A stretch of 64,000 bases of DNA from a virus. Position numbers and translations under genes: made by a program. Below are positions 2,744-59,493 of the stretch, one piece after another; the first letter of the stretch is position 1; each line of letters opens with the position of its first letter. A model generated the notes under the pieces. The model did no database searches and was not told where the DNA came from. It was given only the letters and a program-made list of their open reading frames with translations. The stretch is from IMG/VR virus record IMGVR_UViG_3300036781_000230, positions 1 to 64,000 of that record; one strand, 5' to 3'.

Positions 2744-2748
2744 AATTA

Positions 2749-3162: not shown

Positions 3163-3166
3163 AGAC

Positions 3167-3355
3167 ATGAAAATTTTCCTATCAATAGTGTGGATAGTTT
3201 TTGGAGTTATTTTGCTTGTTGTCTCTTATCCGGCGATTAAAGTTGGATTAGAATTCGGCGGAAGAATGGGAATTCTGTTCGTTGTATCTAGACTTTCATG
3301 GATTATCCCTGCTTTAATTTGCTTTAGGTTAAGTCTCCTAGAGCTAAGAGGGTGA
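3167..3355 (+). CDS. Small membrane protein (2 TM)
   Basis: Two hydrophobic stretches. Confidence 0.55.
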   Translation: MKIFLSIVWIVFGVILLVVSYPAIKVGLEFGGRMGILFVVSRLSWIIPALICFRLSLLELRG

Positions 3356-3621: not shown

Positions 3622-3734
3622 TTCATCCTTCAAATGAGTTGCTAGCATACCTTTCTAGAGGGTTAACTCGAGTGCCGGCCGTTTGAAGCGTTGAGCTGAG
3701 GTAGAGCGTTTCACCTAGCCTACCTCAGATTTTA
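3619..3734 (+). ncRNA. Intergenic structured element (nested stem) followed by a terminator-like hairpin
   Basis: agttca/tgagct, cttcaaatg/cgtttgaag and accttt/agggt pairings; ctgaggtag...ctacctcag + tttt. Confidence 0.4.
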
Positions 3735-3759
3735 ATAGTCAATCCAATGGAGAAATAGC

Positions 3760-4041
3760 ATGGACTGCTGTGTGTTGAGTTCTGAGGAAGTAGGACAGTT
3801 AAAGCACTACAAAATTCTTCCTAATCATGAGAATCATCACCATATTCCATGTGATCAAGCTATTCTCGGTATTAAGGATGAAGACTATGAACTTGTTGAC
3901 GGATTTAATGGTCGTCAGTATCTAACTAAAACTAAGTTATTTTTTCTGCGCAAAGTACCTTCTGGTGGCAAAGGAGCTATTCCAATAGTTCAACGAGTAG
4001 TTAGCAACCACTTGAAGCATCTTATGCCAGTTAGATTTTAA
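3760..4041 (+). CDS. Hypothetical protein
   Basis: GGAG RBS; directly upstream of TerS. Confidence 0.6.
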   Translation: MDCCVLSSEEVGQLKHYKILPNHENHHHIPCDQAILGIKDEDYELVDGFNGRQYLTKTKLFFLRKVPSGGKGAIPIVQRVVSNHLKHLMPVRF

Positions 4042-4054
4042 GGGAGGAGAGACT

Positions 4055-4501
4055 ATGGCCCCTTCTAATAATGGATGGAAACCAGGGCAGAGTGGCAATC
4101 CTGCCGGAGGACCTAAAGGTCCTCGTAAGAAAAATCTTCTCAGTGCTTCGTATAAGGCTATTCTTGGAGAAGTCCTCGATGAGGATACTAAACAAGAATT
4201 TAACATGCCTGACGGTTCTACTTGGGCTGATCTTATTGCAAAGCATGTAGTTAAGCGAGCCGTCGGTAAGGTTCCTGATGAGAAAATTTGCTTTAGAGCT
4301 ATTACTGAACTTCGAGAGACGACTGAAGGAAAAACTCCTGAAAAGGTAATCGCAGCTGGAAGTAATGAGGAACTTGCTAATCTAGCTCGAATCATGCAAG
4401 GAGAGCCGGCCCCACCTGAGGGAGAAGAAGCTATTACTGATGAAGATCAAGCTACAGAGAATGCTGAAGCTGATTTTCACAGTTCAGCAAATGAGGAATA
4501 A
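4055..4501 (+). CDS. terS: Terminase small subunit (DUF5681-like)
   Basis: WKPGQSGNPAGGPKG motif; GGAGG RBS; position before TerL. Confidence 0.75.
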   Translation: MAPSNNGWKPGQSGNPAGGPKGPRKKNLLSASYKAILGEVLDEDTKQEFNMPDGSTWADLIAKHVVKRAVGKVPDEKICFRAITELRETTEGKTPEKVIAAGSNEELANLARIMQGEPAPPEGEEAITDEDQATENAEADFHSSANEE

Positions 4502-4504
4502 ATT

Positions 4505-4822
4505 ATGTGTACATTTTCAGTAGTAGACACTCCACTTACACCAGTAGCGAGTGCCTTATTGCAAGGTGCCGCAAATACTTCAGTTTCAGTTGCTCTCCCC
4601 AGTAATTCTTCAAACACTCCTCCTTCTACAAAAATTATGTTGACTAATATCGGGTCGACTATTCTTTTCATTAATCTAGGAACTTCTGGTGTTGAGGCTA
4701 CTATCTGGGAAGGTGTTCCAGTTCTTCCGAATCAGAATTTATTTTTGTCTATCGGAACGAATGATCACATTGCCGCTATTTCTGAAAGCAGTACCGAACT
4801 CATGATTAATACGGGGTACTAA
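4505..4822 (+). CDS. Small beta-rich putative virion protein (paralog 1)
   Basis: SVALP..LTNIG..LGTSGVEAT..G; similar to the next ORF. Confidence 0.65.
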   Translation: MCTFSVVDTPLTPVASALLQGAANTSVSVALPSNSSNTPPSTKIMLTNIGSTILFINLGTSGVEATIWEGVPVLPNQNLFLSIGTNDHIAAISESSTELMINTGY

Positions 4823-4824
4823 AA

Positions 4825-5121
4825 ATGGCTTTTACTGAGTTTTTTACTCCCTCTGGATACGCTACGCTAGTAGCTGGCGCTACGTCTGCTGGTGTAGCTC
4901 TTCCTGCTGCTGGATCTCCTACCTCAGCTCGAGTTACAAATGCTGGGCCAAATCCAGTAGCTGTTTTGATTGGTGCTTCTGGGGTTGAAGTCACTCCTTC
5001 AACCGGACTTATTTTGAATGCTGGAGAATCAGTGTATCTTGCTACTGGAGCTGAAATTGCTGCCATTTCTTTGGGTGGTGGACCAAGTGATAGCTCAGTA
5101 TTTATCTCAGTAGGCACATAA
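4825..5121 (+). CDS. Small beta-rich putative virion protein (paralog 2)
   Basis: GVALP..VTNAG..IGASGVEVT..G. Confidence 0.65.
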   Translation: MAFTEFFTPSGYATLVAGATSAGVALPAAGSPTSARVTNAGPNPVAVLIGASGVEVTPSTGLILNAGESVYLATGAEIAAISLGGGPSDSSVFISVGT

Positions 5122-5131
5122 GGAGAGTGTT

Positions 5132-6400
5132 GTGCCAATCTTTAAACCGTTCGGACAAAAAGCCCACGATTTTATCAAGAGGCATCCGAGTCAGGATAAG
5201 AAGTACACTCTTCTAGAAGGTAGCGTTCGTTCTTCAAAGACTTTTGCTGTAGATGCTAAGCTCATTCTTCAACTTTGCAATTATAAAGTTAATGGAAAGA
5301 GAGTCATCTGCGGAGCTACGAAGCAAACTGTCTATAAGAACATGCTTCTGGATATATTTCAAGTAGTCGGTAAGAAAAACTATTCTTATAATCGAGCTTC
5401 TGGTGAACTCTGGTTATTCGGGGTTCAGTGGTTCATCATCGGAGCTCGAGATGAAGCAAGTTATAAGAACATTCTTGGCATGACCATTGGCATCGCAATA
5501 TGCGATGAGTGGACTGAATTTCCGAGAAGTTTCTCAATGCAGTTGTTTCTTCGACTTTCTCCCCCGGGCTCGAGGTTATATGCTACCACAAACCCTGGGA
5601 CACCTCAACACTATCTGTTCACTGAAGTCATTCATAACGAGAATTTTGCTCCTGATCTCGAAGTTATCCACTTCACACTCGAAGATAATCCCAATATTGA
5701 AGCTGATCAAAAGAGACAAATTATTGCCTCTCAGAAAGGCGTTTACTATCAACGATATATCTTAGGCCTGTGGGTGGTAGCTGAAGGAGCTATCTACAAG
5801 GATGCGTGGTCGGAAGATCTTTTGTATAATGATCAGTCTAGACCAATTGGACTGTACGGCTCTGGTGGGTACAATAAACATATAATAGCTATTGACCACG
5901 GGACGCACAATCCCTGTACGTTCCTAGAGTTCTTTGATGATGGTGACGTAGCATGGATGGATCGAGAATATTACTGGGACTCAGTTAAAGAGATGAGGCA
6001 AAAAACTAATTCTGAGTATGCTGATGACTTAGAAGAGTTCATAGCTAGTTCTAGAGTTATAGGGGTTAATAATCCTATGATTGTAGTTGATCCTGCTGCT
6101 GCTGGATTTAAGATAGAACTCGTTAAACGCGGATTGTATGTAGTTGATGCGAATAATGAAGTTCTAGAAGGTATTCATCGAACTTCTGAAGTGATGGCCT
6201 GTAAAGCTTTGAGAGTTCATGAAGATTGCGCGAATGAACGTCGAGAATGTGGTCTATATTCCTGGGATAAGAAAGCCGGGGAAAAGGGCAATGAGCAACC
6301 ACTCAAGGTCAATGATCATACTCAAGACGCCAAGAGATATGGAGTAATGGAACTGTTCCCTGAATGGAGAATGGTATCTACTCTTCAAAGAGCTGCTTAA
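5132..6400 (+). CDS. terL: Terminase large subunit
   Basis: Walker A-like EGSVRSSKT, Walker B ICDE, TTNPG, nuclease IAIDHG and DHTQDAKRY. Confidence 0.95.
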   Translation: MPIFKPFGQKAHDFIKRHPSQDKKYTLLEGSVRSSKTFAVDAKLILQLCNYKVNGKRVICGATKQTVYKNMLLDIFQVVGKKNYSYNRASGELWLFGVQWFIIGARDEASYKNILGMTIGIAICDEWTEFPRSFSMQLFLRLSPPGSRLYATTNPGTPQHYLFTEVIHNENFAPDLEVIHFTLEDNPNIEADQKRQIIASQKGVYYQRYILGLWVVAEGAIYKDAWSEDLLYNDQSRPIGLYGSGGYNKHIIAIDHGTHNPCTFLEFFDDGDVAWMDREYYWDSVKEMRQKTNSEYADDLEEFIASSRVIGVNNPMIVVDPAAAGFKIELVKRGLYVVDANNEVLEGIHRTSEVMACKALRVHEDCANERRECGLYSWDKKAGEKGNEQPLKVNDHTQDAKRYGVMELFPEWRMVSTLQRAA

Positions 6401-6409
6401 GGAGCTAAA

Positions 6410-6742
6410 ATGGCACATAATTTTGGTGGTTTCTCAGCTTACGCTAATGACGAGGCTCCCATTGAGGAGATGTCGAATGACGGTGGGCTTCCTGGTTCTC
6501 CTTATTACGCTGGAGACGGCGGTGATGGTTCTGGTGTAATGAGACGTCATCATGTGGAAGGACTTCGTGATTTAGACCGTAAACCTGCAGAAGACTCAAT
6601 GTCTGTTCCTGAAGGAATGAACTCAGGAATTAGTGAAGATTCGCTCGGACCAAGTGGTAAGAAATTCACTGAGCATTTACACTCTCGTAAAGGTGATGGT
6701 AAGTTCGAACCATCATCGATGCGTGGAAAAGAAAAAGAGTAG
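6410..6742 (+). CDS. Hypothetical, probable internal head protein
   Basis: Low complexity; repeated AxD(S/E/G) motifs; GGAG RBS. Confidence 0.6.
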   Translation: MAHNFGGFSAYANDEAPIEEMSNDGGLPGSPYYAGDGGDGSGVMRRHHVEGLRDLDRKPAEDSMSVPEGMNSGISEDSLGPSGKKFTEHLHSRKGDGKFEPSSMRGKEKE

Positions 6743-6767
6743 TCAAATTCGCAATACTGAAAGGTAA

Positions 6768-7064
6768 ATGATGAAACGCCTTGCATTCGCTCTATTGCTT
6801 CTTACGGTAGTTCCTGCGGTAAAAGCCCAGAGTCCTACCCTGCCTCAACCAAACTCAACTCTGGCGAATGACCCTGTTTTTCGGCAGATGGTAACTGAAC
6901 GTGAACTCTTGTTTAAGAAACTTCAGGATATTACCGAGTTTCAACAGTTCATGCAGGTTGAACGAAGCATTGAGCAATACGTAGCTACTCATCCTCAGGC
7001 TCCTGATCCTAAGAATGCTACTCCGGTAAAGCCTGTTACCCACAAGCCTGCTTCGAAGAAGTAA
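6768..7064 (+). CDS. Protein with Sec-type signal peptide
   Basis: MMKRLAFALLLLTVVPAVKA|QS. Confidence 0.7.
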   Translation: MMKRLAFALLLLTVVPAVKAQSPTLPQPNSTLANDPVFRQMVTERELLFKKLQDITEFQQFMQVERSIEQYVATHPQAPDPKNATPVKPVTHKPASKK

Positions 7065-7085
7065 TTCTAAAAGAAAGGAGGTCTG

Positions 7086-8738
7086 ATGCCACGCAAGAAA
7101 TCTACCTCTAGTATCAGACCTCTTCCAGCAAATGACGACAATAATTACGTTCGTCGTCCTAGTGGGATTGCTACTGACAGTTATAGCAATGCTCCTGCTC
7201 GTCTTGGTAATGGTACTCCTAATCTTGTACAGGCTGGTAATTATCCTCTTATTAGACTTACTGAGGATTATCCACTTATCTTGAGTCTGTACAGAAGTTC
7301 TTGGGTCATACGCCGCGTCATAGATACTGTAGCAAATAATATCTACAGTTCTTTTCCTACTCTTACAGCTGATCTAAAGCCTGAGCAGATAAGATCTTTT
7401 GATAGAGTAGTTCGAAAAACAGCTACCCTTACTAAATTGCGCTCAGCTCAGAAGTGGGGAAGACTCTTCGGTGGTGCTGGTGCCGTAATAGTCATCGACG
7501 GTCACGACGATTTGATGCAACCTCTTAGTTTAGACGATGTAGAAATTGGTTCTTTTAAAGGATTGATTCCTTTAGATCGGTGGTCTGGAATTATTCCAGG
7601 ACCTCAGATTGATTCTAATATCAACAACATCGGTAATTTCGGTCTACCTCTATACTATAACTGCATAATGGATGCAGGAAATGTAAACATCCACCATAGT
7701 CGTATTTTGCGGTTTACAGGTAGAGAACTTCCACAATGGGAAGTTCAGGTTGAACTATATTGGGGAATGTCTGAAGTCGAAATTGTATTTGATGAATTAC
7801 GTAAGAGAGATTACAGCTCTTGGAACATTGTGTCTCTGTTAACTCGTGCTCAAGTGCTAAGTATTGAAGAACCCCAATTAGCCACTTTGATGTCTGGTGC
7901 TGGTGGTAGTAATAAATCTTATGGAGATTTCATCAAGAGGATGGAATCCATCAGTCAACTTCTTAATAACCAGGGTCTTCTAGTTCTTGGTAAGGATGGT
8001 AAACTCCAGCAAACTTCTTATGGTTTTGGTGGAATCTCCGATGTCTATCATGAATTTATGAAAGATCTCGCAGCTTCATGTGAAATTCCATATGAAATCA
8101 TCTTTGGAAGAGAGTCTGGTCTTGGAAGTAATTCTGAAGGATCTCTTCAACTTTATGACAATTTGATAGAAGAGAAACGTAAATCTGAAGCCGATCCTAA
8201 TATGGATAGACTTATTCCTATTATAGCTCAGAGTACGTTTGGTTTTGTTCCCGACGATATCGATCACTCGTGGTCGCCGTTCAGATCTCTCTCGCAAGAG
8301 CAGCGCAATAATCTTGCTCGTGGAACTACGACCTCAATTGTTGAGGCCTTTAATTCTGATCTTATTACTAAGCGTGAAGCTAGAACTGAACTCAGAAATT
8401 CAAGCTTAGTTCATGATCAGTTTAGTAGCATTACTAAAGAAGCTCTAGCAGCAACCCCAGACAAGTTTGCTTCTGAGCTTGGCATGGGAGAAATACAAGT
8501 ACCTGAAGGGGGAGGTGATCCATTCTCTGAAGGAAGTGAAAAGGAAAAACCTGCTAAGAATAAGTCTGATAAAGATAAATCTGATAAAGATGAATCTTCT
8601 AAGAAACTCAAAAAGAAGAAAAAGAATAAACTAGCAAAAGATTCCTATCCTTCAGTTGAGAGTGAATCTCTCAAAAATCCAGTAGGAATTTTAGACTGGA
8701 TAAGTAATAAAATCAATATGTTCAGGGCCTCGCAATGA
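7086..8738 (+). CDS. Portal protein (DUF1073 type)
   Basis: LYRSSWVIRRVID, WGRLFGGA, IHHSRILRF, IPYEIIFG motifs; follows TerL. Confidence 0.9.
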   Translation: MPRKKSTSSIRPLPANDDNNYVRRPSGIATDSYSNAPARLGNGTPNLVQAGNYPLIRLTEDYPLILSLYRSSWVIRRVIDTVANNIYSSFPTLTADLKPEQIRSFDRVVRKTATLTKLRSAQKWGRLFGGAGAVIVIDGHDDLMQPLSLDDVEIGSFKGLIPLDRWSGIIPGPQIDSNINNIGNFGLPLYYNCIMDAGNVNIHHSRILRFTGRELPQWEVQVELYWGMSEVEIVFDELRKRDYSSWNIVSLLTRAQVLSIEEPQLATLMSGAGGSNKSYGDFIKRMESISQLLNNQGLLVLGKDGKLQQTSYGFGGISDVYHEFMKDLAASCEIPYEIIFGRESGLGSNSEGSLQLYDNLIEEKRKSEADPNMDRLIPIIAQSTFGFVPDDIDHSWSPFRSLSQEQRNNLARGTTTSIVEAFNSDLITKREARTELRNSSLVHDQFSSITKEALAATPDKFASELGMGEIQVPEGGGDPFSEGSEKEKPAKNKSDKDKSDKDESSKKLKKKKKNKLAKDSYPSVESESLKNPVGILDWISNKINMFRASQ

Positions 8739-9184
8739 AAAATTTATTTGCAAATGCTCTCGACGGTCTTTACTGGGCTAGTGACTCATTACCTACTAAG
8801 AAATTTCATGACTTAAATTTAGTTATAGAGACTCCTAAGTTTGGAATGAGGCAAGGTCCTGGATGGATGTCCAGCCCACCGGCCGACTACGGCTATATCC
8901 TGGACACTACAGGTGCTGACGGTGACGAAATGGACTGCTATCTAGGACCTAACCCAGAAAGTACAATAGTTTATGTGGTTGATCAAAATAGGATGGATAG
9001 TCCTGTGTTTGATGAACACAAATGTATGCTCGGTTATAATTCCATGGCAGAAGCTAAGAAAGATTACTATGATGGTCATACTCATGGAATTCAAATCTTT
9101 CGTAACATAACTGCTTTACCTTTAAGTGTTTTTAAAGCTTGGCTTAAACATGGAGATATCTCTAAGCCTATAATTCTACAGTAA
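8735..9184 (+). CDS. Inorganic pyrophosphatase-like domain protein
   Basis: DYGYI..T.GADGDEMDCYLG...FDEHKCMLGY. Confidence 0.8.
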   Translation: MKNLFANALDGLYWASDSLPTKKFHDLNLVIETPKFGMRQGPGWMSSPPADYGYILDTTGADGDEMDCYLGPNPESTIVYVVDQNRMDSPVFDEHKCMLGYNSMAEAKKDYYDGHTHGIQIFRNITALPLSVFKAWLKHGDISKPIILQ

Positions 9185-9204
9185 CAAGATTAAAAGAGAC
9201 TTAT

Positions 9205-9369
9205 ATGACTAACGATGAAATTTATCGATTAGCAAAGGCTGAAGACGTACGGTGTATAAAGCCTCTTATGAATTTAGTTACTCTAGCTGCTCTGGAGATT
9301 CTTAAATTAGAATCTAAAACTCCAGTTCCAGAGGGAGTGAAATTTGTCGACCTCTTTCCTCGTCCCTGA
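9205..9369 (+). CDS. Small hypothetical protein (54 aa, not in ORF track)
   Basis: MTNDEIYRLAKAEDV...; fills the gap. Confidence 0.45.
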   Translation: MTNDEIYRLAKAEDVRCIKPLMNLVTLAALEILKLESKTPVPEGVKFVDLFPRP

Positions 9370-10207
9370 TCGCATAGAATCTGCTTACAGATCAGCTATA
9401 TCAAAAGTAGTTATGTCTTGGATTCCTCCAAAGATAAAAGGCATAAGTCCTTCTTACTGGCTGAAAGAGTTATCTGATGTTAGTACTCGTAAAAGTATCA
9501 TTAATGCTAGTACTAATATAGCTGTAAACATGGTGAGTAGAGTCAACGTAGTAAATGTAAAGTCTTGGAGAGAAGCTGCTCTTAAGGCTCAGAGTAGTAG
9601 ATACATTTACGAACTTCTACAACAAGAGTTATCCGGTCCTGTCGGAGTACGAATTAGACAACTAGTACTAGAGAACGCTAAAGTACTAGGACAGATACCT
9701 ACTGACGTTTCTGATATTCTTGCTGAGGAAATAGCTAAAGCTCAGCAGCAAGGCACCAGGCCTGAGGCCATCGAAGCCCTTTTGAAACATCGCTTCACGG
9801 ACATTATGTCCTGGAAAATAGCTCAAATAGCTCGAACTCAGTCTGGATCAACCAGTACTGCTTTAACTAGAGCTAGAAGTGAAGAGCTTGGACTTCCATG
9901 TTTTATTTGGGATACGTCTGAAGATAGACGAGTAAGACACTCCCATAGAGTAATGGATGGCGTAGTAGTTTTTTGGAATGATTTGCCCTCTCCTGAATCT
10001 TTAGTAGGACAAAGAAGCTCTTTCGGTCGTTATGCTCCTGGGGACTGTACTAATTGCAGGTGCTATCCTCGTCCAGTATTAACTCTTGAAGACGTTTTTC
10101 AAAAGAAAAATAGTCTGATTAAAGTATATGCTGATGGTCAGATAATTAAAATGACTAGGATGAATTTTTCTAAGAAATCTGGAATTGAATCCAGAATGGC
10201 AGCTTAA
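9344..10207 (+). CDS. MuF / SPP1 gp7-like head morphogenesis protein
   Basis: IARTQ, WDTSEDRRVRHSH, PG..TNCRC. Confidence 0.9.
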   Translation: MSTSFLVPDRIESAYRSAISKVVMSWIPPKIKGISPSYWLKELSDVSTRKSIINASTNIAVNMVSRVNVVNVKSWREAALKAQSSRYIYELLQQELSGPVGVRIRQLVLENAKVLGQIPTDVSDILAEEIAKAQQQGTRPEAIEALLKHRFTDIMSWKIAQIARTQSGSTSTALTRARSEELGLPCFIWDTSEDRRVRHSHRVMDGVVVFWNDLPSPESLVGQRSSFGRYAPGDCTNCRCYPRPVLTLEDVFQKKNSLIKVYADGQIIKMTRMNFSKKSGIESRMAA

Positions 10208-10218
10208 GGAGAACTACT

Positions 10219-10632
10219 ATGAAGAATTTGGTTAAGATTTTTCTAGCTATTTTGCTCGGAACATCTACTGTTTTTGCTCAAGTTGCTGGGCCTGTTGCTG
10301 CTGTTCCTGGTACTCCTGGAGCTGCTGCTGTATATGGAACTCCAATCAATGGGACTCCAGTAATTATCCCTGGTACTGTTATTCCGACTAATGGAAAAAA
10401 TGTCCTCACAGGTACAGTCACAGCGACAACCGCAACTACAGCTCCTGCAACAATTACAGGAGTCACTACGAGTTCAGTATGTGTGTTTTCTGCTGCTAAT
10501 GCTATTGCTGCAGCCGCTATCATAGCCGATAACGCATTTTTAACGCCTACTGCTAATACTGTGACTCTTACCTTTAGTGCTGCTCCAGCGACTACCGGCG
10601 GAATCTTTAAGGTTCTCTGCACAGTTAACTAA
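10219..10632 (+). CDS. Signal-peptide-bearing putative head decoration/appendage protein
   Basis: MKNLVKIFLAILLGTSTVFA|QV; C-terminal domain resembles the C-terminus of the 1301-aa fibre. Confidence 0.7.
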   Translation: MKNLVKIFLAILLGTSTVFAQVAGPVAAVPGTPGAAAVYGTPINGTPVIIPGTVIPTNGKNVLTGTVTATTATTAPATITGVTTSSVCVFSAANAIAAAAIIADNAFLTPTANTVTLTFSAAPATTGGIFKVLCTVN

Positions 10633-10641
10633 GAGGTTAAT

Positions 10642-10842
10642 ATGTCGATAAATCCCGGAAGATCAGCTTTTCCATCAGACAACCAGAAGCCTTTTGAAGG
10701 TACTGAGAATTCTGATCCAGGTAATGGTGGTGGAAATAGCGGTGCTGTACTGAGTCCAGCTCCTGGTCTCGGGCTATCTGCTTATCAAGACCCTAGAGTT
10801 CCTGTAGAAGCACCACTACCAAATCGTCAAGGAGGAAGCTAG
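10642..10842 (+). CDS. Small hypothetical head-module protein
   Basis: GAGG RBS; G/P rich. Confidence 0.55.
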   Translation: MSINPGRSAFPSDNQKPFEGTENSDPGNGGGNSGAVLSPAPGLGLSAYQDPRVPVEAPLPNRQGGS

Positions 10843-10844
10843 CC

Positions 10845-11183
10845 ATGGCAAAAATCAATGGCGGATATAGCGCAGTTTCTTGGGGTCCTACTGTGGATTC
10901 AACTCCACATGATAATGGACCTATTCCAGAGATGAGTACTAGCATTCCAAGTTCTATTCCTGAGCTTGGAGCACTAGCTGATGCTGATCCGTATTCTGGT
11001 ATAGGAAACTACGGTAGTCCTGATAATCCTCCGGCTATGGATTCTGATTTTTCTAAGTTAGAACATAAACTGGAAAATAAACCAGGAGTTACTAACCCTG
11101 CTGGCCTCGCAGCAGAAATTGGAAGAAAAGAGCTTGGACAAGCTGAAATGACTCGTCGAAGCGAAGAGGGTCGAAAACACTAG
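10845..11183 (+). CDS. Hypothetical, probable internal head protein
   Basis: PAMDS motif followed by FSKLEHKL..KPGVTNPAGLAAEIGRK. Confidence 0.65.
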   Translation: MAKINGGYSAVSWGPTVDSTPHDNGPIPEMSTSIPSSIPELGALADADPYSGIGNYGSPDNPPAMDSDFSKLEHKLENKPGVTNPAGLAAEIGRKELGQAEMTRRSEEGRKH

Positions 11184-12583
11184 TGCCAAAATATCACTCA
11201 TTGATGCTTAGCCCCAACATCTCAAAAACTGTTGAGGGTTATCTGATATGCGAGAATGTTCCACTTTGTCGAAGTGGTTTTCAAGATTATCTAGGAAAAG
11301 AACTAGAAGATTTTGTAGGCTACGAAAAATCCTGGGAATTGAATCCAAATCAATTATATAGGGTATATCGACCTAAGGAAGAAGTTCTTCATCCAGACTT
11401 CATCGCCAGTCTCGAGGGAAAAACTGTCGTTGATGAGCATCCGGATGGAAACGTAGTTCATGTTGATAATGATCAAGAACTCAACTGTGGACACGTGGAA
11501 AAAGTTGGACCAGGTCCTACTATAGATGGAGAGGTTACTCTTAAGGGTGATCTCATCATTAAGAATCCTGATCTGATAGAAAAAGTTCGACCAGAAAGCG
11601 ATCCAGATAATGAATATGGAACCGCTGTTCGCGATGTAAGTTGCGGCTATGGTCTACACCTCAAACGTCTCGACGATGGGACGATTGTGATGCATCGGTT
11701 GCGTGGAAATCACGTAGCTGTAGTAGAAAAAGGCAGGGCTGGTCCGCGGTTTGCCATCAAGGATTCTGCTCCGCCCGAAATCAAAATAATCAAGGAGCCG
11801 ATTATGTCACTAAGGAAGACGATTATCGGGCGAGGAATCCAAGCACTCTTCGGTGATATCAGCGCAGCAGAAAAGGAAAGCCTCATGGCTGAACTCGATG
11901 CTTCTGGTACTACGAAAATTGCAACAGATGCTGAACCCAAGGAAATGCACCCTGCTCACGCTTGCCTAGATCGTTGCTTGTCGGCGATGAAGGCTGGAGA
12001 TTCTGCAGCTCTTGAAGAGCACAAAAAAGAACTCTTCAAGCACATCGGTCATCATGAGCCTGAACACATGGATGATTCTGATGTGGAAAAGCTCAAGGAT
12101 GAAGAGAAGGAAAAGAAGGAAGAGAAAAAGGCTGGTGATGAGGAACTTGAGCAGGAAGAGAAAACTCCTGCTGAGGAAAAAGAAGAGACTCACGCCACCG
12201 ACTCTGAAAAAGCCGAGAAAGAGATTAACGATCCTGGTGAATCTGTTCTTAAGGCCGCTAACGATTCTGTCCGCGATTACATTCGAAGCAGCCGTCCTGT
12301 GATTGCTGTCATTGCGAATAAGGACCAGAGCAAACGATCGAAGACAGAGCAGATCATGCTTGATAGTTATAATGGCGCTGTTAAGGGTCTTAACTCTCAG
12401 GTTGGTCGACGGTCTACTTATTCGGCTCTTTCTCGCACAAAGACGCCCGAAGGTATTCCTCCTCTGGCTACTGATTCTTCGGCAGTTACCAAGGCCCCTG
12501 AGACCTGCAACTGTTTTGACGGTGTTCCGTACAAAGTCGGTCTCAAGCGTCATGAAACCGCTCATCAGAAGGGAGCTAACTAA
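11183..12583 (+). CDS. Prohead protease-scaffold (DUF2213)
   Basis: GYLIC..VP..RSG.Q.Y, VYRP.EEV, VDEHP, VSCGY, NHVAVVEKGRAG; acidic scaffold tail. Confidence 0.9.
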   Translation: MPKYHSLMLSPNISKTVEGYLICENVPLCRSGFQDYLGKELEDFVGYEKSWELNPNQLYRVYRPKEEVLHPDFIASLEGKTVVDEHPDGNVVHVDNDQELNCGHVEKVGPGPTIDGEVTLKGDLIIKNPDLIEKVRPESDPDNEYGTAVRDVSCGYGLHLKRLDDGTIVMHRLRGNHVAVVEKGRAGPRFAIKDSAPPEIKIIKEPIMSLRKTIIGRGIQALFGDISAAEKESLMAELDASGTTKIATDAEPKEMHPAHACLDRCLSAMKAGDSAALEEHKKELFKHIGHHEPEHMDDSDVEKLKDEEKEKKEEKKAGDEELEQEEKTPAEEKEETHATDSEKAEKEINDPGESVLKAANDSVRDYIRSSRPVIAVIANKDQSKRSKTEQIMLDSYNGAVKGLNSQVGRRSTYSALSRTKTPEGIPPLATDSSAVTKAPETCNCFDGVPYKVGLKRHETAHQKGAN

Positions 12584-12588
12584 AAACT

Positions 12589-13149
12589 ATGCCAGCCTCA
12601 GTAATTCCTGTAAAAGGACTATACCTCGGCTTTGTCGGTAGTATCAGCAACGAAGGTTATTCTCTTCGCACTGCTCGGCAAGTCAAATCTTCGGACACGA
12701 ATCCTATCGCCTTTGGCGAAACGTTCGTTCTGAACGCAGATAACACTTACTCCAGCGTTAAGACCTTTATTGCTGGAAGTGGCACAGTTACAGCAGCTAC
12801 TCCGATGGGAATTGCTGCAAGCAACGTAAACATCAATCCTACCTACAATACTCAAGGTACGGATGGTGTAAATACTCCTGGCGGAGTTTATCTGCCTGGA
12901 ACTATTATGGATGGTCTTGTTCAGGGAACCATCAATGTTAGCTGCAACAATGGTACTCCTACGGCTGGCGGAAGCGTTTACGTTCGCACAGTTCTTAATG
13001 GAGCTATTCCAACTGGAGTTGTTGGCGGACTCGAAGCTCAGGCAGACGGCTCCAATAGCGTTCTCTACCCGAACTTTAAGTGGAAAACTGGTTTCCTCGA
13101 GACGGATCTTACGGCTCAGGTAACTATTCTCCAACGCACTATTGCCTAA
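12589..13149 (+). CDS. Capsid cement/decoration protein
   Basis: Between scaffold and MCP; G.INV...GTPTAGGSVYVR motif. Confidence 0.8.
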   Translation: MPASVIPVKGLYLGFVGSISNEGYSLRTARQVKSSDTNPIAFGETFVLNADNTYSSVKTFIAGSGTVTAATPMGIAASNVNINPTYNTQGTDGVNTPGGVYLPGTIMDGLVQGTINVSCNNGTPTAGGSVYVRTVLNGAIPTGVVGGLEAQADGSNSVLYPNFKWKTGFLETDLTAQVTILQRTIA

Positions 13150-13167
13150 TCGGCGGAAAGGTAAGAA

Positions 13168-14172
13168 ATGAATCCCAGAGAATATCAACAGAGCCTAAAC
13201 GCTCTGCGCAGTGGGAAGGTACTTTCCGATGCCGCAGCGGCAGCAACCGGTCAGACCTTCTTGATGGCGGAACTCGCCAAGCTCGATCCAGTGGTTCGTC
13301 TTCCACTGGAAAACTACACCTATCTTCGCGATATTCCTATCGATCGCGGCGGTGGATGGATCATGAATCATATCGCCCACAACGTTGATTTTCGTGGACC
13401 TGCTGATGACTCAGCTGGTTCTCAGACCAATGATTCGCGTGTGATCGAGTACAACGTCAACCAGGATACCTGGCCGGTATTCCCCTACCAAGTTCGCATC
13501 CGTATTCCCATCGTGGAATCCCTCCGGATGGCTCAGGTAGGACGTTCTCCTCAGGACTTGCTCGATAAAGGCGTTCGCGTCGACTACAGCAAGACCCTTG
13601 ATCGCCGTACATACGCAGGATTTGCTGGACAGTACGGGTTGGTTAACAATCCGGAACTGACACAGACATCCTTGCCTGCAACTGGAACCGGTAACACTAC
13701 GACATGGAGCACGAAGACTGCCACTCAGATTCTCGGCGACTTCAATTTCATGGCTGAGACCAACTGGCTTGCCAGCGGTTCGGCTCCTGGCGCTATGCCG
13801 GATCGTTTCCTTATTCCTCCGGCGCAGTATATTCAGATCACCCAGCCGATGGCGGTTGTTGGTGGACCTTCTGGTTACGCTTCCATTCAGGACTATGTCA
13901 AGAAGAACTACCTTGGCTCGGCCTTTGGAATTGAACCGGAAATCTACCCTCTGCCTGAATGGCTCGACGGTCAGGGTAGTGGCAGTACGCAGGAAATTAT
14001 CGCGTACAAGTATGACAAGGACTGCTTGAGCTTGGGTATTCCCCAGGAAATCACGCGGTTTGGTGCTCCTCCGTCGATCGTATCTGGCTGCTTCGAGTTC
14101 CTGTATCTTGCGAACATCGGTGTAGTCAAGATCAATCGGCCTACGACCGTAGGTCTCTTCTACGGCGCATAA
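13168..14172 (+). CDS. Major capsid protein (DUF2184 type)
   Basis: FLMAELAKLDP, YGLVNNP, PDRFLIPP; GC-shifted codons. Confidence 0.9.
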   Translation: MNPREYQQSLNALRSGKVLSDAAAAATGQTFLMAELAKLDPVVRLPLENYTYLRDIPIDRGGGWIMNHIAHNVDFRGPADDSAGSQTNDSRVIEYNVNQDTWPVFPYQVRIRIPIVESLRMAQVGRSPQDLLDKGVRVDYSKTLDRRTYAGFAGQYGLVNNPELTQTSLPATGTGNTTTWSTKTATQILGDFNFMAETNWLASGSAPGAMPDRFLIPPAQYIQITQPMAVVGGPSGYASIQDYVKKNYLGSAFGIEPEIYPLPEWLDGQGSGSTQEIIAYKYDKDCLSLGIPQEITRFGAPPSIVSGCFEFLYLANIGVVKINRPTTVGLFYGA

Positions 14173-17363: not shown

Positions 17364-18797
17364 ATGGGATCATCTACTTTGCCGCTGTCTATTATCGCCG
17401 ATGTAACTGTAGTGACATCTTCACCTCAGGTAGCGGCTCCGACCTTTAATATAGGTTTGATTATTGGTCCTTCAACTGCTATTCCATCGTATGGAGCAAA
17501 TTCAAGAGTTCGTACGTATCTTGCAGCTACGTACTCTACAGCTATGTTAGCTGACGGATTTACTACTGATGACCCTGAGTTTATTTGTGCTCAGATTTAT
17601 TTCAGTCAATCTCCTCAACCTCAGACACTTCAAATTGGTCGTCAAGATTTAACTGCTATTGCTGCTGCTGCTCCTGCTGCTTCAGAAGGTGGTACAGGAT
17701 ATGTGGTTGGAGATATCGTAGGAGTGACTCAATCGAGTGCCTCTTTCGGTGAGCTTCGAGTATCTACGATTGGTACCAACGGCGTAGTTACTGCGCTTAC
17801 TACAGTTGCTGGCAATCAGGGAACGGGTTATTCTGTAGCTTCTGGCTTGGCTACAACTGGAGGTTCCGGTACTGGACTTCAGGTAGATATTACCGCTATT
17901 GGAGAAACTCCTCTTCAATCTGTTCAAGTTTGCAGAAATGTTAGTGCTTTGTGGTATCCTTGCATGGTTACCACCGCTGTCGACGCTGACCACATTGCTA
18001 TTTCAGCTTGGGTATTGTCTCAAGTCGGTACAATCTACTTTGGTACTTCCTCAGCTGCTACCGTTCCTGCTGGAACTGCCGGTAATCCTTTTCTTACCAT
18101 GTATGGCGCTGGCTCTAAGAGAACCTGGATGCAGTGGGCTACGACGCAAAGCGGACTCATCCCAACACAAGCATATTTTGTTGCTGCGGTCATGGGTCAA
18201 GCTATGGCTTCAAACACTCAACTTGCTAATTCTGCTTTCACTGAAAAGTTTAGCGGTGGAGTTCCTCTCGTCGGAGTATTCGTAGAACCCAATCTAACTA
18301 CCACTCAGATTGCTAATATCGAAGGACAGAGCACTTCGCTTGGCCCCAATGGAAATCTTTATCTAAATTACGGAAATTCATTCAATGTGCTTGAACAAGG
18401 CACCATGATGGCTCCCGGAGTTTTCTTTGATCAGATTTTAAATCTCGATATTCTAGCTTCTAACATTCAGTTTGCTATCATGAATCTTCTGACTTCATCT
18501 CCGAAGATTCCTCAAACTGACGCAGGTCAGCAACTCTTGATACAAGCAGTCGAGTCCGCTCTTACGCAGTCTGCTAACACCGGATTTATTGCTTCGGGAG
18601 TTTGGAAAGGACAGAATATCCTCAACCAGATTACTCCTGGTATGGCTCTTCCAACTGGATTTGCAGTAGTATCTCCTCTTTATAAGACTCTTACTTCTGC
18701 TCAAATCCAAGCTCGTCAAGCGCCTCCTATTTATGTGGCTCTTATCGAAGCTGGAGCTGTTCACTTCGTGACTATCGAAGTTCTTGTACAGGTATAA
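17364..18797 (+). CDS. Tail sheath protein (DUF3383)
   Basis: YFSQSPQP..L.IGR, G.FFDQ, KIPQTDAG, ARQAPPI, GAVHFV. Confidence 0.9.
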   Translation: MGSSTLPLSIIADVTVVTSSPQVAAPTFNIGLIIGPSTAIPSYGANSRVRTYLAATYSTAMLADGFTTDDPEFICAQIYFSQSPQPQTLQIGRQDLTAIAAAAPAASEGGTGYVVGDIVGVTQSSASFGELRVSTIGTNGVVTALTTVAGNQGTGYSVASGLATTGGSGTGLQVDITAIGETPLQSVQVCRNVSALWYPCMVTTAVDADHIAISAWVLSQVGTIYFGTSSAATVPAGTAGNPFLTMYGAGSKRTWMQWATTQSGLIPTQAYFVAAVMGQAMASNTQLANSAFTEKFSGGVPLVGVFVEPNLTTTQIANIEGQSTSLGPNGNLYLNYGNSFNVLEQGTMMAPGVFFDQILNLDILASNIQFAIMNLLTSSPKIPQTDAGQQLLIQAVESALTQSANTGFIASGVWKGQNILNQITPGMALPTGFAVVSPLYKTLTSAQIQARQAPPIYVALIEAGAVHFVTIEVLVQV

Positions 18798-18818
18798 TCT
18801 ATAAGTCTCAAGGGTTAT

Positions 18819-18910
18819 ATGCAATTCGAGTATGAATATACATACATATTTGGGTTGCATATGATTCCATGGGAATCCAGGATATCTTAGTGATGACCCT
18901 GGTGAATACT
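18819..18910. repeat. 42-bp dyad, copy 2, with phased tail
   Basis: ATGCAA-N30-TTGCAT at 18819-18860, then ..aatCCAGGat.. Confidence 0.8.
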
Positions 18911-19816: not shown

Positions 19817-20025
19817 ATTCTTTCGGATGGGAACCAGCTTTTTATACTAGTCTAAGTCCAATACTCATGAGACCAGTAGAAGCTGGACTGTGGAAACTCC
19901 ACGAAACATTCGATGGAACTTACATAGTGGATGACTTGTTTGACATCCTAGAAATGATGGATGTAAAGATGGAGAACGAAGCACGAGCCGAAGAATATAG
20001 GAGAAGAAAAGAAAATGTCCGCTAA
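19771..20025 (+). CDS. -1 frameshift extension of the tail chaperone (GT)
   Basis: -1 frame open from T TTT TTA (19771-19777) to TAA at 20025: ..LMRPVEAGLWKLHETFDGTYIVDDLFDILEMMDV.. Confidence 0.8.
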   Translation, partial: FFRRKQVDRPTVESLNSFGWEPAFYTSLSPILMRPVEAGLWKLHETFDGTYIVDDLFDILEMMDVKMENEARAEEYRRRKENVR

Positions 20026-21646
20026 CATTCTCGATTCCTATTTAGTAAAACTCGGTGCTGTAGTAGATGGTAGTTCATGGCAGAAATTTTCTTACACTCT
20101 TAGAGACGCTGAGAAAAATGTCTTGTCATTTGCTGGTGGCACCATGCTCAATTTTCTCAAGGTTGAGGCTACTATAGTAAGTGCTCTTTCTGCGGCTGGA
20201 ACAGGAATCATAGCTCTAGCGGATAAAACCGCAATGGCTGATCAACAGTACAGACTCTTTGGTATGAGAATGTTAATGACCAAAGAGTCTGCCAGAGCCA
20301 TGAAAATTGCCCAAGATGAGCTCGGTGCTTCTCTTGATGAAATTGCTTACGATCCAGAACTTAATAAAAGATTTCAATATCTCTATGAGCAAAACATAAA
20401 GCTCGGTAGAGCTATGGGCGACGGGTTTGACAGTAACATGCGTAGTATTCGTGATATTCGCATGGAATATGGAAGATTTACCGCCGAATTAGAATTTCTT
20501 GCTGGTGGAGCAGTTAGTAAACTTTTCGAAAAATTGGGATTTGGTTCTGGAGATGTTCTCAATAAGCTTAATAAGCTTAATGATTGGTTCACAGAAAATC
20601 TTCCGGGAATATCAGATCAAGTAGCTAATAAGTTAATTCCAGTTTGGCAAGATTGGGTAGTGGTCGGTAAAGACCTTAAAAATACAGTTAAGGATGTTGC
20701 TGGAGAATTTCAGTTTTTAACTGGAGTAATTACTGGAGATGATTCACTTCAGACTAATACTCTAAATGTTAAAGACGCCACAAAGGCAGCTTTAGATTGG
20801 TTAGATGTACTTGCTGAAATTGCCCTTACTCTTCAACTGATTGCAAAAACAGGTACTCATGCTTTTGCAGCGGGAACTGAAGGATTAGCATCTTTGATGG
20901 CCAGATTTCATGGGAATACAAAAGAAGCAGATAGATTAAACTATCTTTCTCAGCAAGACATGAAAGCCGCTGTTAATAATGTTGGAGATTATTTCTCAGG
21001 TAACGGAGCTAATGGACTTAACAAAGATTTTAGTGGAATCAATGATTTCTTTAAGAAACAAAATGAAAGAACTCAAGCAGAAAACACAACAAATCCAAAC
21101 TTAGCTAATCTAGTAAATCAGGCTGGTAAAAAATACAACATCGATCCTAATCTTCTATCTGCTCTTATCCATAAGGAAAGTAATTATAATACCGGTGCGA
21201 TAAGCAATAAAGGAGCTAAAGGTTTGATGCAGATGATGCCAGGAACAGCTTCTCAATATGGAGTTGATAATCCTTTCAATCCTGCTCAGTCTATAGAAGG
21301 TGGAACTCACTATCTTTCTGATTTACTTAATAAATATAATGGGAATGTTGAGAAGGCTTTAGCGGCTTACAATGCAGGTCCTGGGAATGTTGATAAGTAT
21401 GGAGGTATTCCTCCGTATAAAGAAACTGAAGACTACGTAAGAACTATCCTGAGAGACTATAGTCGGTACAGCAATGATGCCCATAGAGAAGGAGAAGCTG
21501 TTCATATAGGAACCGTTCACATTCATGTTCCCCATGACCTCCCATCTGATCAGTGGTCTCATTTCGTTAAAGAATCTATGGTTGATCTTACAAAGACTAA
21601 CAACGCTAAGACCATGGCACAGACTGCGGGAGGAGCGTTCTTCTAA
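20015..21646 (+). CDS. Tape measure protein with C-terminal soluble lytic transglycosylase domain
   Basis: N-terminal YLVKLG; ALIHKESNYN..AIS.KGAKGLMQMMP, ALAAYNAGPG, ETEDYV. Confidence 0.9.
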   Translation: MSANILDSYLVKLGAVVDGSSWQKFSYTLRDAEKNVLSFAGGTMLNFLKVEATIVSALSAAGTGIIALADKTAMADQQYRLFGMRMLMTKESARAMKIAQDELGASLDEIAYDPELNKRFQYLYEQNIKLGRAMGDGFDSNMRSIRDIRMEYGRFTAELEFLAGGAVSKLFEKLGFGSGDVLNKLNKLNDWFTENLPGISDQVANKLIPVWQDWVVVGKDLKNTVKDVAGEFQFLTGVITGDDSLQTNTLNVKDATKAALDWLDVLAEIALTLQLIAKTGTHAFAAGTEGLASLMARFHGNTKEADRLNYLSQQDMKAAVNNVGDYFSGNGANGLNKDFSGINDFFKKQNERTQAENTTNPNLANLVNQAGKKYNIDPNLLSALIHKESNYNTGAISNKGAKGLMQMMPGTASQYGVDNPFNPAQSIEGGTHYLSDLLNKYNGNVEKALAAYNAGPGNVDKYGGIPPYKETEDYVRTILRDYSRYSNDAHREGEAVHIGTVHIHVPHDLPSDQWSHFVKESMVDLTKTNNAKTMAQTAGGAFF

Positions 21647-56639: not shown

Positions 56640-56668
56640 ATATTATACTATGTAAAATGAGTTGTACA
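56640..56668 (-). promoter_or_regulatory. Promoter TGTACA-N17-TAATAT
   Basis: TGTACAACT motif family. Confidence 0.6.
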
Positions 56669-56767
56669 TAACAGTTTATAACTTTATTTCTTACGCGTAC
56701 GCGCGCGCCTATATAATATTGATAAGAATAATACAGAAACAAAAATGCAAACACCGTCATTTTATTG

Positions 56768-56796
56768 TGTACAACTTGATTTACAAGGTATATACT
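56768..56796 (+). promoter_or_regulatory. Promoter TGTACA-N17-TATACT
   Basis: TGTACAACT motif family; drives the + strand island. Confidence 0.65.
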
Positions 56797-57574: not shown

Positions 57575-57765
57575 CAACATTTGAAGCTCTTACGCTTCCT
57601 TTAACGGTAAAGTGTCCTCGTTGTACCCGTAGAAATGTCATCAAAGATGAGGTTTGCTTCGTATGCAGAGGTACTGGACAAACTATGCGCCTCAAAACTG
57701 AAATGGCTGAGATTATCGTAACTCTTCGCGCTGAATTAGAGAAAAGAGTGTGGAAACAAAAATGA
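57571..57765 (+). CDS. Small Zn-finger protein (DnaJ-like CxxC..CxxCxGxG)
   Basis: CPRC...CFVCRGTG. Confidence 0.6.
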   Translation: MTTFEALTLPLTVKCPRCTRRNVIKDEVCFVCRGTGQTMRLKTEMAEIIVTLRAELEKRVWKQK

Positions 57766-57784
57766 TTTCTCTGTCATTATTTTA

Positions 57785-57813
57785 TGTACAACTCGTTATA
57801 CACATGATAATAT
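57785..57813 (+). promoter_or_regulatory. Promoter TGTACA-N17-TAATAT with extended -10 TG
   Basis: TGTACAACT motif family; upstream of the RNA cassette. Confidence 0.65.
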
Positions 57814-57858
57814 TGAATCAGATTGATAGAGTAATTCTGATATAAAGGAAACTAACTA

Positions 57859-58023
57859 ATGAAGATTGACATCAAGCAGCTTTTAACCTCCTCAACGCTT
57901 GGTAGCATTATTCTACTTCATGCTGCTGATTATCTCTTCAGACAGAATGAAGAAGATAAAGTAAATCTAGAAGCAGTTGGTGTTCTCGATATGCTCAGGA
58001 AAGAAATTGTAATCTTTTGCTAG
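57859..58023 (+). CDS. Small hypothetical protein (54 aa, not in ORF track)
   Basis: AAAGGA RBS; MKIDIKQLL... Confidence 0.55.
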   Translation: MKIDIKQLLTSSTLGSIILLHAADYLFRQNEEDKVNLEAVGVLDMLRKEIVIFC

Positions 58024-58033
58024 GAGATTCACT

Positions 58034-58219
58034 ATGTATGATTTGTTTGTAGTACCTGTTATCTGCATTGGGATAGTAGTTTGGTTAGCTCTTAATGAGA
58101 ATACTTGGTTTGCTTCGAGTGATATACCAATGCTTGAGCAAATTGAAAATGCTCGTTGTCAAGCCGCAGAAGAACGTAAACTGTTGGAAAATCCAGTAGT
58201 CTATACTTTGGAGTACTAA
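58034..58219 (+). CDS. Small single-pass membrane protein
   Basis: AGGAG RBS; N-terminal TM. Confidence 0.6.
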   Translation: MYDLFVVPVICIGIVVWLALNENTWFASSDIPMLEQIENARCQAAEERKLLENPVVYTLEY

Positions 58220-58226
58220 ACTCATC

Positions 58227-58751
58227 TTGTATGATGAGTGATGCTCATAGGAAAGCATGGGGAACCATGAAACCTTTTGCAATGGGGTGGTTCGTTTTCT
58301 TCATGGGAAAAAAACGGAGTAAACTCATCCTATGAGTAGCACTGGTTGTACAAGCAACCAGCAAGGGAGGTAATAGTGATCTTTAGTAGGCCACTGATAG
58401 TCACGTTTATCGTTCTTGCATTTGTAATTGGAGACACAGACCACGACATCGCGCGGTCGGGGAAGCCTTCCCATAGTGTCTCATCAAATGCAGATCGACA
58501 TATTTCGCCCGGCTTGGCGGGCGCTATAAATTCCAAGGGATGACATATAGATAGTAAAATTAGATAGCAGTTTGATACCCTGCTTAAGCGCCGGATAAAT
58601 ATCAAGCACTAAAGAGTCTTGACGCGTAAGTGGGGTATTTCGTAAGTTGTATGATGAGTGATGCTCTTGAATCTAACCAAGGCTCGGGACTGACGTACCC
58701 AATACGTTCGCGGAAAGCCCCGTTAGATAGAGAGCATCACTGGTTGTATAA
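58227..58751 (+). ncRNA. Structured RNA cassette: two units closed by a shared duplicated stem, flanking a multibranched domain
   Basis: Exact 20-nt repeat at 58227 and 58647 pairs with near-identical repeats at 58334 and 58732; many nested stems with G-U pairs. Confidence 0.7.
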
Positions 58752-58766
58752 TTGAAAGGAGCACGA

Positions 58767-59033
58767 ATGGCAAAGTGCGTAGTATGTACATCTCTCAATG
58801 CGGAGATTGAACACAACCTCAGGAGCAAATCTCTTGACAAGAAGAATGCCGATGGTTCAACATCCAAAGGTTTTCATCACCCAACTGGAGCAGTCTTGAA
58901 AGCTCTCAAGCGTCGTCGAGCTTTTTATTCTCCTCGTACGAGCCCCCACAAGTTCTGCATACATCATGCCCCAAAGGGTGAACCTAATTTCGAAGGCGGT
59001 ACTGGCCGTGCCACCTGGGCAGGAGCCAAGTAA
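58767..59033 (+). CDS. Basic Cys/His protein
   Basis: AAAGGAG RBS before MAKCVVC; C..H near the C-terminus. Confidence 0.65.
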   Translation: MAKCVVCTSLNAEIEHNLRSKSLDKKNADGSTSKGFHHPTGAVLKALKRRRAFYSPRTSPHKFCIHHAPKGEPNFEGGTGRATWAGAK

Positions 59034-59152
59034 TGGCGAGAATCTTTCTTAATAAGAACAACTGGAAATATCACGCGAAAGAATTACTAGGTGCTTTGAT
59101 GATGGCTGCTCTATTTCTTTGCTTGGCTCTTACTCCATTGCTGAGTAAATAA
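59033..59152 (+). CDS. Small membrane peptide (39 aa, not in ORF track)
   Basis: TAATG overlap; LLGALMMAALFLCLAL. Confidence 0.45.
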   Translation: MARIFLNKNNWKYHAKELLGALMMAALFLCLALTPLLSK

Positions 59153-59195
59153 AAGAGTGTAAAATATCGTCATTCATCATATTTAAAGTTGACTC

Positions 59196-59230
59196 CTAGT
59201 GACCCTGGCATTATGCCAGGGTCATTTAGT
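59196..59230. terminator. Hairpin terminator at the convergent junction
   Basis: tgaccctggca/tgccagggtca. Confidence 0.75.
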
Positions 59231-59250
59231 TTATGAGGATGATATAACAC

Positions 59251-59493
59251 TCATCCTTTATTTTGCATACCGCCAGGGTCAACCGATATACAGTTTCTAT
59301 TATTATCGAAGCTTAAAGTGTTGATGTGCGTCAATTCAATTGAGTCGAATATTGCTTGATTGTGCATATCCTCAAACATAATCTTAGGAAACACCTCGAT
59401 ACACTTCACTTCTCCTGTCTTGAGTATTTCTGCTACTATGTAATATTTCCCATTAGTGTGTTTAACTATTTTGTTGATGTCTTGTGAGGTCAC
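59251..59493 (-). CDS. Hypothetical protein
   Basis: Packed operon. Confidence 0.5.
   Translation of the reverse strand: MTSQDINKIVKHTNGKYYIVAEILKTGEVKCIEVFPKIMFEDMHNQAIFDSIELTHINTLSFDNNRNCISVDPGGMQNKG

Follow-up and report, generated by a model that had tools for sequence, protein, structure and literature searches.

In the processing stalks of ribosomal RNA a helix formed by flanking sequence encloses a folded RNA, and RNase III excises pre-16S and pre-23S. The phi29 pRNA and the bacterial Y RNAs (YrlA) are about 120 nt long and carry a branched head on a long helix formed by their 5' and 3' ends. The early precursor transcript of phage T7 contains five RNase III signals; an ideal substrate of the E. 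coli enzyme is a 22-bp helix cut at its centre, and with mismatches at this site cutting can be confined to one strand (PMC3867540). T4-type phages carry PeSL elements, which combine a sigma-70 promoter with a short GC-rich terminator hairpin and act in DNA recombination (PMC2839356, PMC4122927). The locus described here belongs to an uncultured phage from a soil metagenome, represented in IMG/VR by a 79-kb virus genome of which the first 64 kb (64,000 nucleotides) is the stretch of DNA that was analysed, hereafter the window. It holds two units in which a long closing helix (the handle) encloses a folded insert (the cargo). Like the T7 early signals R0.3 to R1.3, these handles are intercistronic hairpins of an early operon, present in several related copies per genome, with about two helical turns and a central non-Watson-Crick element, and the enzyme in T7, as would be the case here, is that of the host and not phage-encoded (PMC3867540). 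They lie between the cistrons of a putative polycistronic early transcript. In contrast to the T7 signals, with which they have no sequence similarity, the helices close a cargo of 60-170 nt and not a simple upper stem, and contain a single G·G in place of an internal loop; here cleavage is putative. The likeness to the rRNA stalks lies in a long helix enclosing a folded RNA, whereas cutting is only proposed here and the cargo, of about 100 nt, lies between phage protein-coding genes.

The source genome has no close relative among the GenBank phages, and comparison of 57700-59200 (blastn) and of the downstream protein P0001 (tblastn) with the same phages gave no match. The one sequencing run listed for the sequence was the source soil DNA run, whose contigs did not cover the locus. 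The source annotation calls four genes in the + strand island (orf54, orf61, P0001 and orf39) and none in 58220-58766, where the units lie (Table 1). These genes would form a + strand early operon, transcribed from putative promoters at 56768 and 57785 to the terminator at 59226. The promoter motif, TGTACAACT, occurs seven times in the genome with a TATAAT-like hexamer about 14 nt after every copy; two of the seven (2770 and 69427) are a single locus counted twice through the duplicated contig end. On this pattern TGTACAACT is a real phage promoter-type motif, and the copy at 57785, on the + strand upstream of the units, bears out the statement of the sequence-only reading that the cassette lies downstream of such a promoter. 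Two further copies, at 56660 (-) and 56768 (+), stand as divergent early promoters inside an imperfect palindrome of 26-28 bp (56644-56792), the longest long-range inverted repeat of the genome, and an upstream block AAAAATGA...TCATT.TTTT is common to three promoter copies (56768, 57785 and 43535).

Table 1. Features of the early + strand island and of units built alike (positions refer to the source genome unless another sequence is named; folds are predicted)
Feature	Position	Strand	Details
Early promoter (putative)	57785..57813	+	TGTACAACT 57785-57793, 14-nt spacer, -10-like TAATAT 57808-57813
orf54	57859-58023	+	exact protein in source annotation; codon score 0.15
orf61	58034-58219	+	exact protein in source annotation; N-terminal hydrophobic helix; codon score 0.20
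Unit 1, type-1 Y-shaped RNA	58226..58354	+	fold; L019/L021 homologues; covariance model 135.7 bits
Unit 1 P1 (handle)	58226-58252 with 58328-58354	+	G·G at 58236/58344
Unit 1 P2	58255-58262 with 58273-58280	+	loop holds ACCAUGAAACC (58264-58274)
Unit 1 P3	58288-58302 with 58307-58321	+	loop UCAUGGGAA (58298-58306)
Unit 1 junction GUAAAC	58316-58321	+	
Hairpin A	58361-58419	+	z -5.4; encloses Shine-Dalgarno AAGGGAGG and GTG at 58376
Candidate 55-aa ORF	58376-58543	+	strong Shine-Dalgarno; uncalled by source; codon score -0.06; overlaps central stretch 58361..58640
Hairpin B	58420-58495	+	z -4.3
Hairpin C	58503-58527	+	small, GC
Hairpin D	58573-58640	+	z -4.2
Unit 2	58645..58753	+	24-bp handle 58645-58668 with 58730-58753; G·G 58656/58742; irregular hairpin cargo
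Shine-Dalgarno AAAGGAG	58755-58761	+	before P0001
P0001	58767-59033	+	88 aa; CxxC and HxxCxHH motifs, basic stretch
orf39	59033-59152	+	C-terminal hydrophobic helix
Intrinsic terminator	59198..59226	+	13-pair stem, then T-rich tail; closes + strand island
Third long-range helix, this genome	64130-64349	+	23-26 bp, central G·G, encloses 168 nt
L004 alpha	4577-4687		22-bp closing helix; z -8.1
L004 beta	4691-4819		26-bp closing helix; z -9.4; ends just before Shine-Dalgarno
L019 type-1 unit	2305-2434		between genes; L019 helicase 66% identical
L019 beta-type unit	2963-3074		between genes
L021 type-1 unit	L021:1857-1977		

The repeat structure reported for the locus was found as described. The two 20-nt 5' arms (58227-58246 and 58647-58666) have the same sequence, and their partners at 58334-58353 and 58732-58751, said to be near-identical, are 85% alike; arm and partner pair on the + strand in helices of 24-27 bp that contain the G-U pairs and the internal mismatch expected. 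No further copy of the arms was detected in the 79-kb genome with up to five mismatches allowed. The helix of unit 2 consists of 11 bp, a G·G mismatch and 12 bp, and that of unit 1 of 10 bp, G·G, 4 bp, A·G and 11 bp. As DNA the arms are only 75% complementary: their differences amount to four G·U wobbles and the G·G in unit 2, and to four wobbles, the G·G and the A·G in unit 1. These wobbles would be A·C mismatches on the - strand, and because they are G·U the outer half of the shared helix exists only as + strand RNA. The two helices enclose 57-79 nt and lack a following U-tract; A-U and G-U pairs abound in their outer halves.

Folding of the + strand gave -52.5 kcal/mol for unit 1 (z -5.4) and -50.2 kcal/mol for unit 2 (z -8.0), and the - strand folds of both units were weaker since the G·U wobbles pair on the + strand alone. 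When 551-nt windows from the whole genome were used to regress folding energy on GC, the + strand of 58218-58768 came first among 394 (residual -49.7 kcal/mol, 4.1 sd) and its - strand 27th; as predicted by this model, no other 551-nt window of the 79-kb genome is as structured once GC is corrected for. Units 1 and 2 are thus strand-specific structures at the RNA level, formed by the + strand. Their interiors alone are modestly structured (z -1.5 and -2.3). In sequence context the helix of unit 2 forms with a pairing probability of about 100%, whereas the outer half of the shared helix in unit 1 reaches about 6% and competing mini-hairpins that flank the unit (ACUCAUC/GAUGAGU and GGUUG/CAACC) reach 94%. 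A 10-nt direct repeat, TAAACTCATC, stands just ahead of unit 1 (58217-58226) and a second time within the unit, ahead of P1's 3' strand (58320-58329); either copy is able to pair with GAUGAGU in the 5' arm, so that unit 1 has alternative folds that are absent from unit 2. The interiors had both been described as branched. For unit 1 the cgtttt/aaaacg stem stood and covaries in homologues as P3, while gaaccat/gtggttc falls outside the consensus fold even though its ACCA and UGGU are conserved. For unit 2 the pairing atctaac/gttagat is kept, the proposed TTCG-capped hairpin does not appear in the predicted fold, and the cargo is predicted to be one irregular hairpin with no branch.

Searches with the arms themselves led nowhere. 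Exact and gapped arm patterns in IMG/VR returned either nothing or one chance match in a coding sequence (L002), and a two-arm pattern gave 10 matches in 185,579 prokaryote genomes, about the number estimated from the size of the collection, none of which folds into the stem. Relatives were instead reached through a nearby SNF2 helicase gene. One of the phages found in this way, L019, contains a unit whose alignment with unit 1 of the window needs just one gap, of one base: the two units differ throughout the sequence of the closing helix and of P3, whereas they have the same loops, ACCAUGAAACC and UCAUGGGAA, and the same GUAAAC junction. A pattern built from these invariant loops recovered one further member, in L021, a phage of 57% GC that has no protein similarity to the source genome over 10 kb. 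A looser version of the pattern added only chance matches (L022-L027). Three strong members of the type-1 family were found, in the window, L019 and L021. Their alignment supports a consensus structure with 26 pairs in P1, 8 in P2 and 13 in P3. Covariation across homologues, a check proposed in the sequence-only reading, was strong: 27 of the 47 pairs have changed on both sides with pairing kept, against 11.1 in shuffles and 4-9 in slid registers, and 90.3% of the cells are paired, against 68.6% in shuffles; none of 500 shuffles did as well. There are only three sequences, yet the covariation goes beyond relatedness because the helices are rebuilt from different letters.

A covariance model of the family (R1) scores its three members at 110-136 bits, with one copy per genome. 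Unit 2 does not match this model; the alpha unit of a further phage, L004, gives a weak match (26 bits) that comes mostly from the handle and was rejected as a type-1 cargo. No Rfam 15 family was detected in the window, elsewhere in the genome or in the homologous units of L019 and L021, and at E up to 10 nothing in 57700-59300 overlapped the units. Judged from sequence comparison, type-1 is an RNA family and architecture that is absent from Rfam and, as far as we could find, previously undescribed. Its presence in other phages indicates that the units are real RNA modules and not chance repeats, and the conservation of the cargo across unrelated phages suggests that it has a function of its own, for instance in binding a ligand, a protein or another RNA. 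Most likely the units are cut out of the early transcript or control it.

Further units built in the same manner were found in these phages. L004, whose helicase is 68% identical, has two adjacent Y-shaped units (alpha and beta) in a gene-free gap of its early region, and both fold much more weakly on the - strand. With the two in L019 and the one in L021 they make five, to which the helix at 64130-64349 of the source genome is added; the cargos measure 60-170 nt. All seven unit-type helices that were checked contain one central G·G, separated from the base by 7-11 bp and from the junction by 12-16 bp, and across the seven units the helix has 21-27 positions. Six control long helices have mismatches other than G·G, and in background helices G·G makes up about 8-12% of the mismatches. 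The handles of L004, L019 and L021 share the sequence UGCC-NN-GG paired with CC-N'N'-GGGAG, in which the NN pairs are fully compensated in three cases and form a C·U mismatch in the fourth (L019 beta). Handles are alike within a phage, the two of the window being near-identical, while cargos are common to different phages: the type-1 cargo is carried on the window-type handle here and on the UGCC-type handle in L019 and L021, and the cargos of unit 2, alpha and beta ride on the same handles as type-1. The idea that one closing stem serves different cargos thus holds in several genomes, with the type-1 cargo recurring on other handles, and at the level of sequence the modularity of handle and cargo is shown.

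The same comparisons bear on whether the repeats act as DNA. They could be recombination modules of the PeSL kind that shuffle ORFan cassettes, or a small mobile element with terminal inverted repeats. Two identical 20-nt repeats, in direct orientation and 420 bp apart, do bound a variable segment in an ORFan-rich early region, the + strand island cassette is absent from the close relative L004, and a precedent exists in the PeSL elements themselves (PMC2839356), which are also repeated intergenic motifs flanking ORFans in a variable early region with a potential for modular exchange. However, the differences between the arms are G·U on the + strand except for one in unit 2 and two in unit 1, compensatory changes preserve the helices across phages, and neither a target-site duplication nor another copy was found in the genome, in IMG/VR or in the 185,579 prokaryote genomes. 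Unlike PeSL elements, the repeat contains no promoter, its long helices are rich in G·U on one strand and it covaries at the RNA level; no promoter in the arms is common to both units, the sole promoter-scan match nearby (TAGATA-17-TATAAT, 58724-58752) being specific to unit 2 and placed so that transcription would start inside the Shine-Dalgarno sequence, and units 1 and 2 do not form a short GC-rich terminator stem-loop. A match to a known mobile repeat, which the sequence-only reading had named as evidence against it, did not turn up, and the locus departs from a MITE in its two copies, unrelated interiors and lack of flanking duplication.

A coding origin of the repeats fares no better. 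The arms could be parts of two 34-aa ORFs beginning MMSDA (58231-58335 and 58651-58755), both of which are open, of equal length and alike in their first five residues. Against this, they have no properly spaced Shine-Dalgarno sequence and their start codons are buried in the helix; the source annotation does not call them; their codon scores are 0.10 and 0.02 compared with 0.10-0.20 in neighbouring genes; the 3' arms are also conserved despite different frames and contexts; and the frame is not kept in L019 and L021, where the handle sequence is completely different. Both explanations are unlikely in view of the G·U asymmetry, the compensatory changes and the absence of further copies: DNA-level repeats very much so, and the small ORFs to the point of being hardly credible.

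What the handle does is suggested by its geometry and its position. Its placement and its two-turn helix with a central non-canonical element lead us to favour, tentatively and at a little short of an even chance, processing of the RNase III type, by which cistrons would be separated and the folded cargos freed or capped. The handle, a helix of 20-27 bp or about two turns of dsRNA with the G·G near its centre, fills the space between stop codon and Shine-Dalgarno sequence, type-1 members beginning 6-10 nt downstream of the stop codon; a dsRNA-specific endonuclease, most likely the RNase III of the host, would recognise it, and cleavage at or near the G·G would separate the upstream orf54-orf61 from the downstream P0001-orf39 and either free the folded cargos or leave them as terminal hairpins. 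The sequence-only reading had proposed such processing too, with discrete small RNAs that would be released and might act as decoys or against host defence. Several points temper this proposal. Neither an RNase III nor a dsRBD gene was found in the phage genome, so nothing ties the phage-specific handle sequence to a dedicated enzyme. The central G·G could equally prevent cleavage by RNase III, since it splits the helix into segments of less than 20 bp. The predicted loss of the outer handle of unit 1 to its flanking mini-hairpins would also count against processing, and the position upstream of the Shine-Dalgarno sequence fits a purely cis-regulatory role equally well.

Such a role would make the units uncut leaders that control the translation or stability of the downstream gene, with the cargo as a riboswitch-like aptamer and the handle as a rigid spacer or standby site. 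The arrangement of the units speaks for it: in the window, L019, L021 and L004 they end 13-24 nt before a start codon with the Shine-Dalgarno sequence right after the helix, L004 alpha being the one exception. So does the shape of type-1, a three-way junction in which P1 carries two hairpins with an invariant junction and invariant loops of mutually complementary sequence (CCAUG and CAUGG), which resembles the kissing-loop arrangement of purine-type aptamers, and in unit 1 the outer handle and its alternative hairpins could act as a switch. The family also has the conserved, covarying cargo of a riboswitch. However, the ORFs downstream of its three members are unrelated (55 aa and hydrophobic, 95 aa, 43 aa) and not of one gene class, no expression platform was recognised, the unit leaves the Shine-Dalgarno sequence free, and the Rfam search, with E up to 10, found no riboswitch. 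Unlike in purine riboswitches, P1 has 21-27 bp, and it is fully stable in unit 2, L019 and L021, too stable to switch. We consider a cis-acting leader unlikely, if deserving of attention. In L019 the beta-type unit immediately precedes a 275-aa protein that has a Tat-like signal, RRKFL (L019:2963-3914), and the homologous beta unit of L004 is followed by an unrelated basic protein of 154 aa, so the same RNA stands before different genes.

It is also conceivable that the handle is a docking site for an RNA-binding protein, of phage or host, that recognises the G·G helix, with a ribonucleoprotein or a stabilised transcript as the outcome and the uncut RNA as the functional form. Purine-purine mismatches widen the major groove for arginine-rich peptides, as in Rev/RRE, and handles that are similar within a phage and differ between phages with the G·G kept would fit co-evolution with a cognate factor. 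P0001, encoded just downstream, is small and basic and has a Zn-binding-like motif. Yet no candidate protein is common to all the phages, L021 having no protein similar to those of the window genome in its 10 kb, and the structure model of P0001 is of low confidence (pLDDT 66) and matches no family. This reading therefore seems quite unlikely to us. P0001 has three relatives at about 80% identity (P0002-P0004), and a metagenome scan for it yielded only a 35%-identical relative with no stem upstream of its gene. The Shine-Dalgarno sequence and first eight codons of P0001 (58755-58795) are nearly identical as DNA to L003:4990-5030 and to L007, although the protein encoded after this near-identical start is only 35% identical and its contig much more GC-rich. 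This comparison suggests nucleotide-level constraint on the start region of P0001, as an operator or a recombination junction.

Between the two units the + strand is predicted to form a chain of hairpins in the order unit 1, A, B, C, D, unit 2, and hairpins A, B and D are each more stable on the + strand than on the - strand. ORFs inside the 58220-58766 gap score poorly in codon usage compared with the neighbouring genes. The candidate 55-aa ORF in this stretch, for which no homologue was found, may be coding, with the non-coding alternative somewhat the more probable; we keep it at this level because the homologous units of L019 and L021 also precede a Shine-Dalgarno sequence and a start codon.

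Other RNA classes were considered and set aside. No complementarity of at least 13 nt to the rest of the genome pointed to an antisense target, and the GGA count is about what composition predicts, contrary to a CsrA sponge. The motif UGAUGA...CUGG lacks the 3-nt bulge and the tandem G·A pairs of a K-turn or box C/D element, Rfam gave no signal for hammerhead or other ribozymes, and ARAGORN found no tRNA or tmRNA in the window or the rest of the genome. A retron msr/msd was rejected since there is no RVT_1 match anywhere in the genome. A Y RNA acting with Ro was discarded too: unlike phi29 pRNA and YrlA, the units have no Rfam match, and the phage has no Ro gene, with no TROVE match. The phage also differs from phi29 in its DUF1073-type portal, whose nearest matches come from tailed phages other than those of the phi29 group.

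Structured non-coding RNAs of lytic phages are poorly charted, and the comparisons above turn the oddity of a single genome into an RNA family supported by covariation. Should the handle indeed direct processing, the T7 model would come to include the excision of folded small RNAs, and a compact, transplantable excision tag would be gained, the whole system taking less than 600 nt; should the cargo bind a host factor or a small molecule, a new function in early infection would follow. These considerations lead us to speculate that the handle may be a portable RNA tag, in which a two-turn helix with a central G·G is tuned to the phage or host and placed on interchangeable cargos for their excision or presentation from early transcripts, type-1 being an unknown trans-acting RNA or aptamer that unrelated phages of 38-57% GC direct at a conserved host function. 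In this full form the idea is possible, on the doubtful side.

Some features elsewhere in the genome deserve mention. The longest local hairpin of the genome, a 4-nt loop on a stem of 26 bp in which G·U pairs are numerous, is found on the + strand of the window at 18812-18867, between the ORFs 17364-18797 and 20015-21646. The last 12.6 kb (genome 66424-79071; L008:2424-15071) is a copy of window positions 1-13235 at about 87% identity, and from these similar ends the 79-kb contig is probably the wrap-around of a circularly permuted genome of about 66.4 kb, in which the assembly joined two co-occurring strains. A gene-free stretch of about 600 nt that lies just outside the window (genome 64022-64634; L008:22-634) contains five copies of the iteron-like GCCATAACT and three of GTTACCT, and its fold has a z of -3.7 (+ strand) and -1.5 (- strand). 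This stretch may serve as an origin or in regulation, or may hold a third handle-type RNA antisense to its neighbours.
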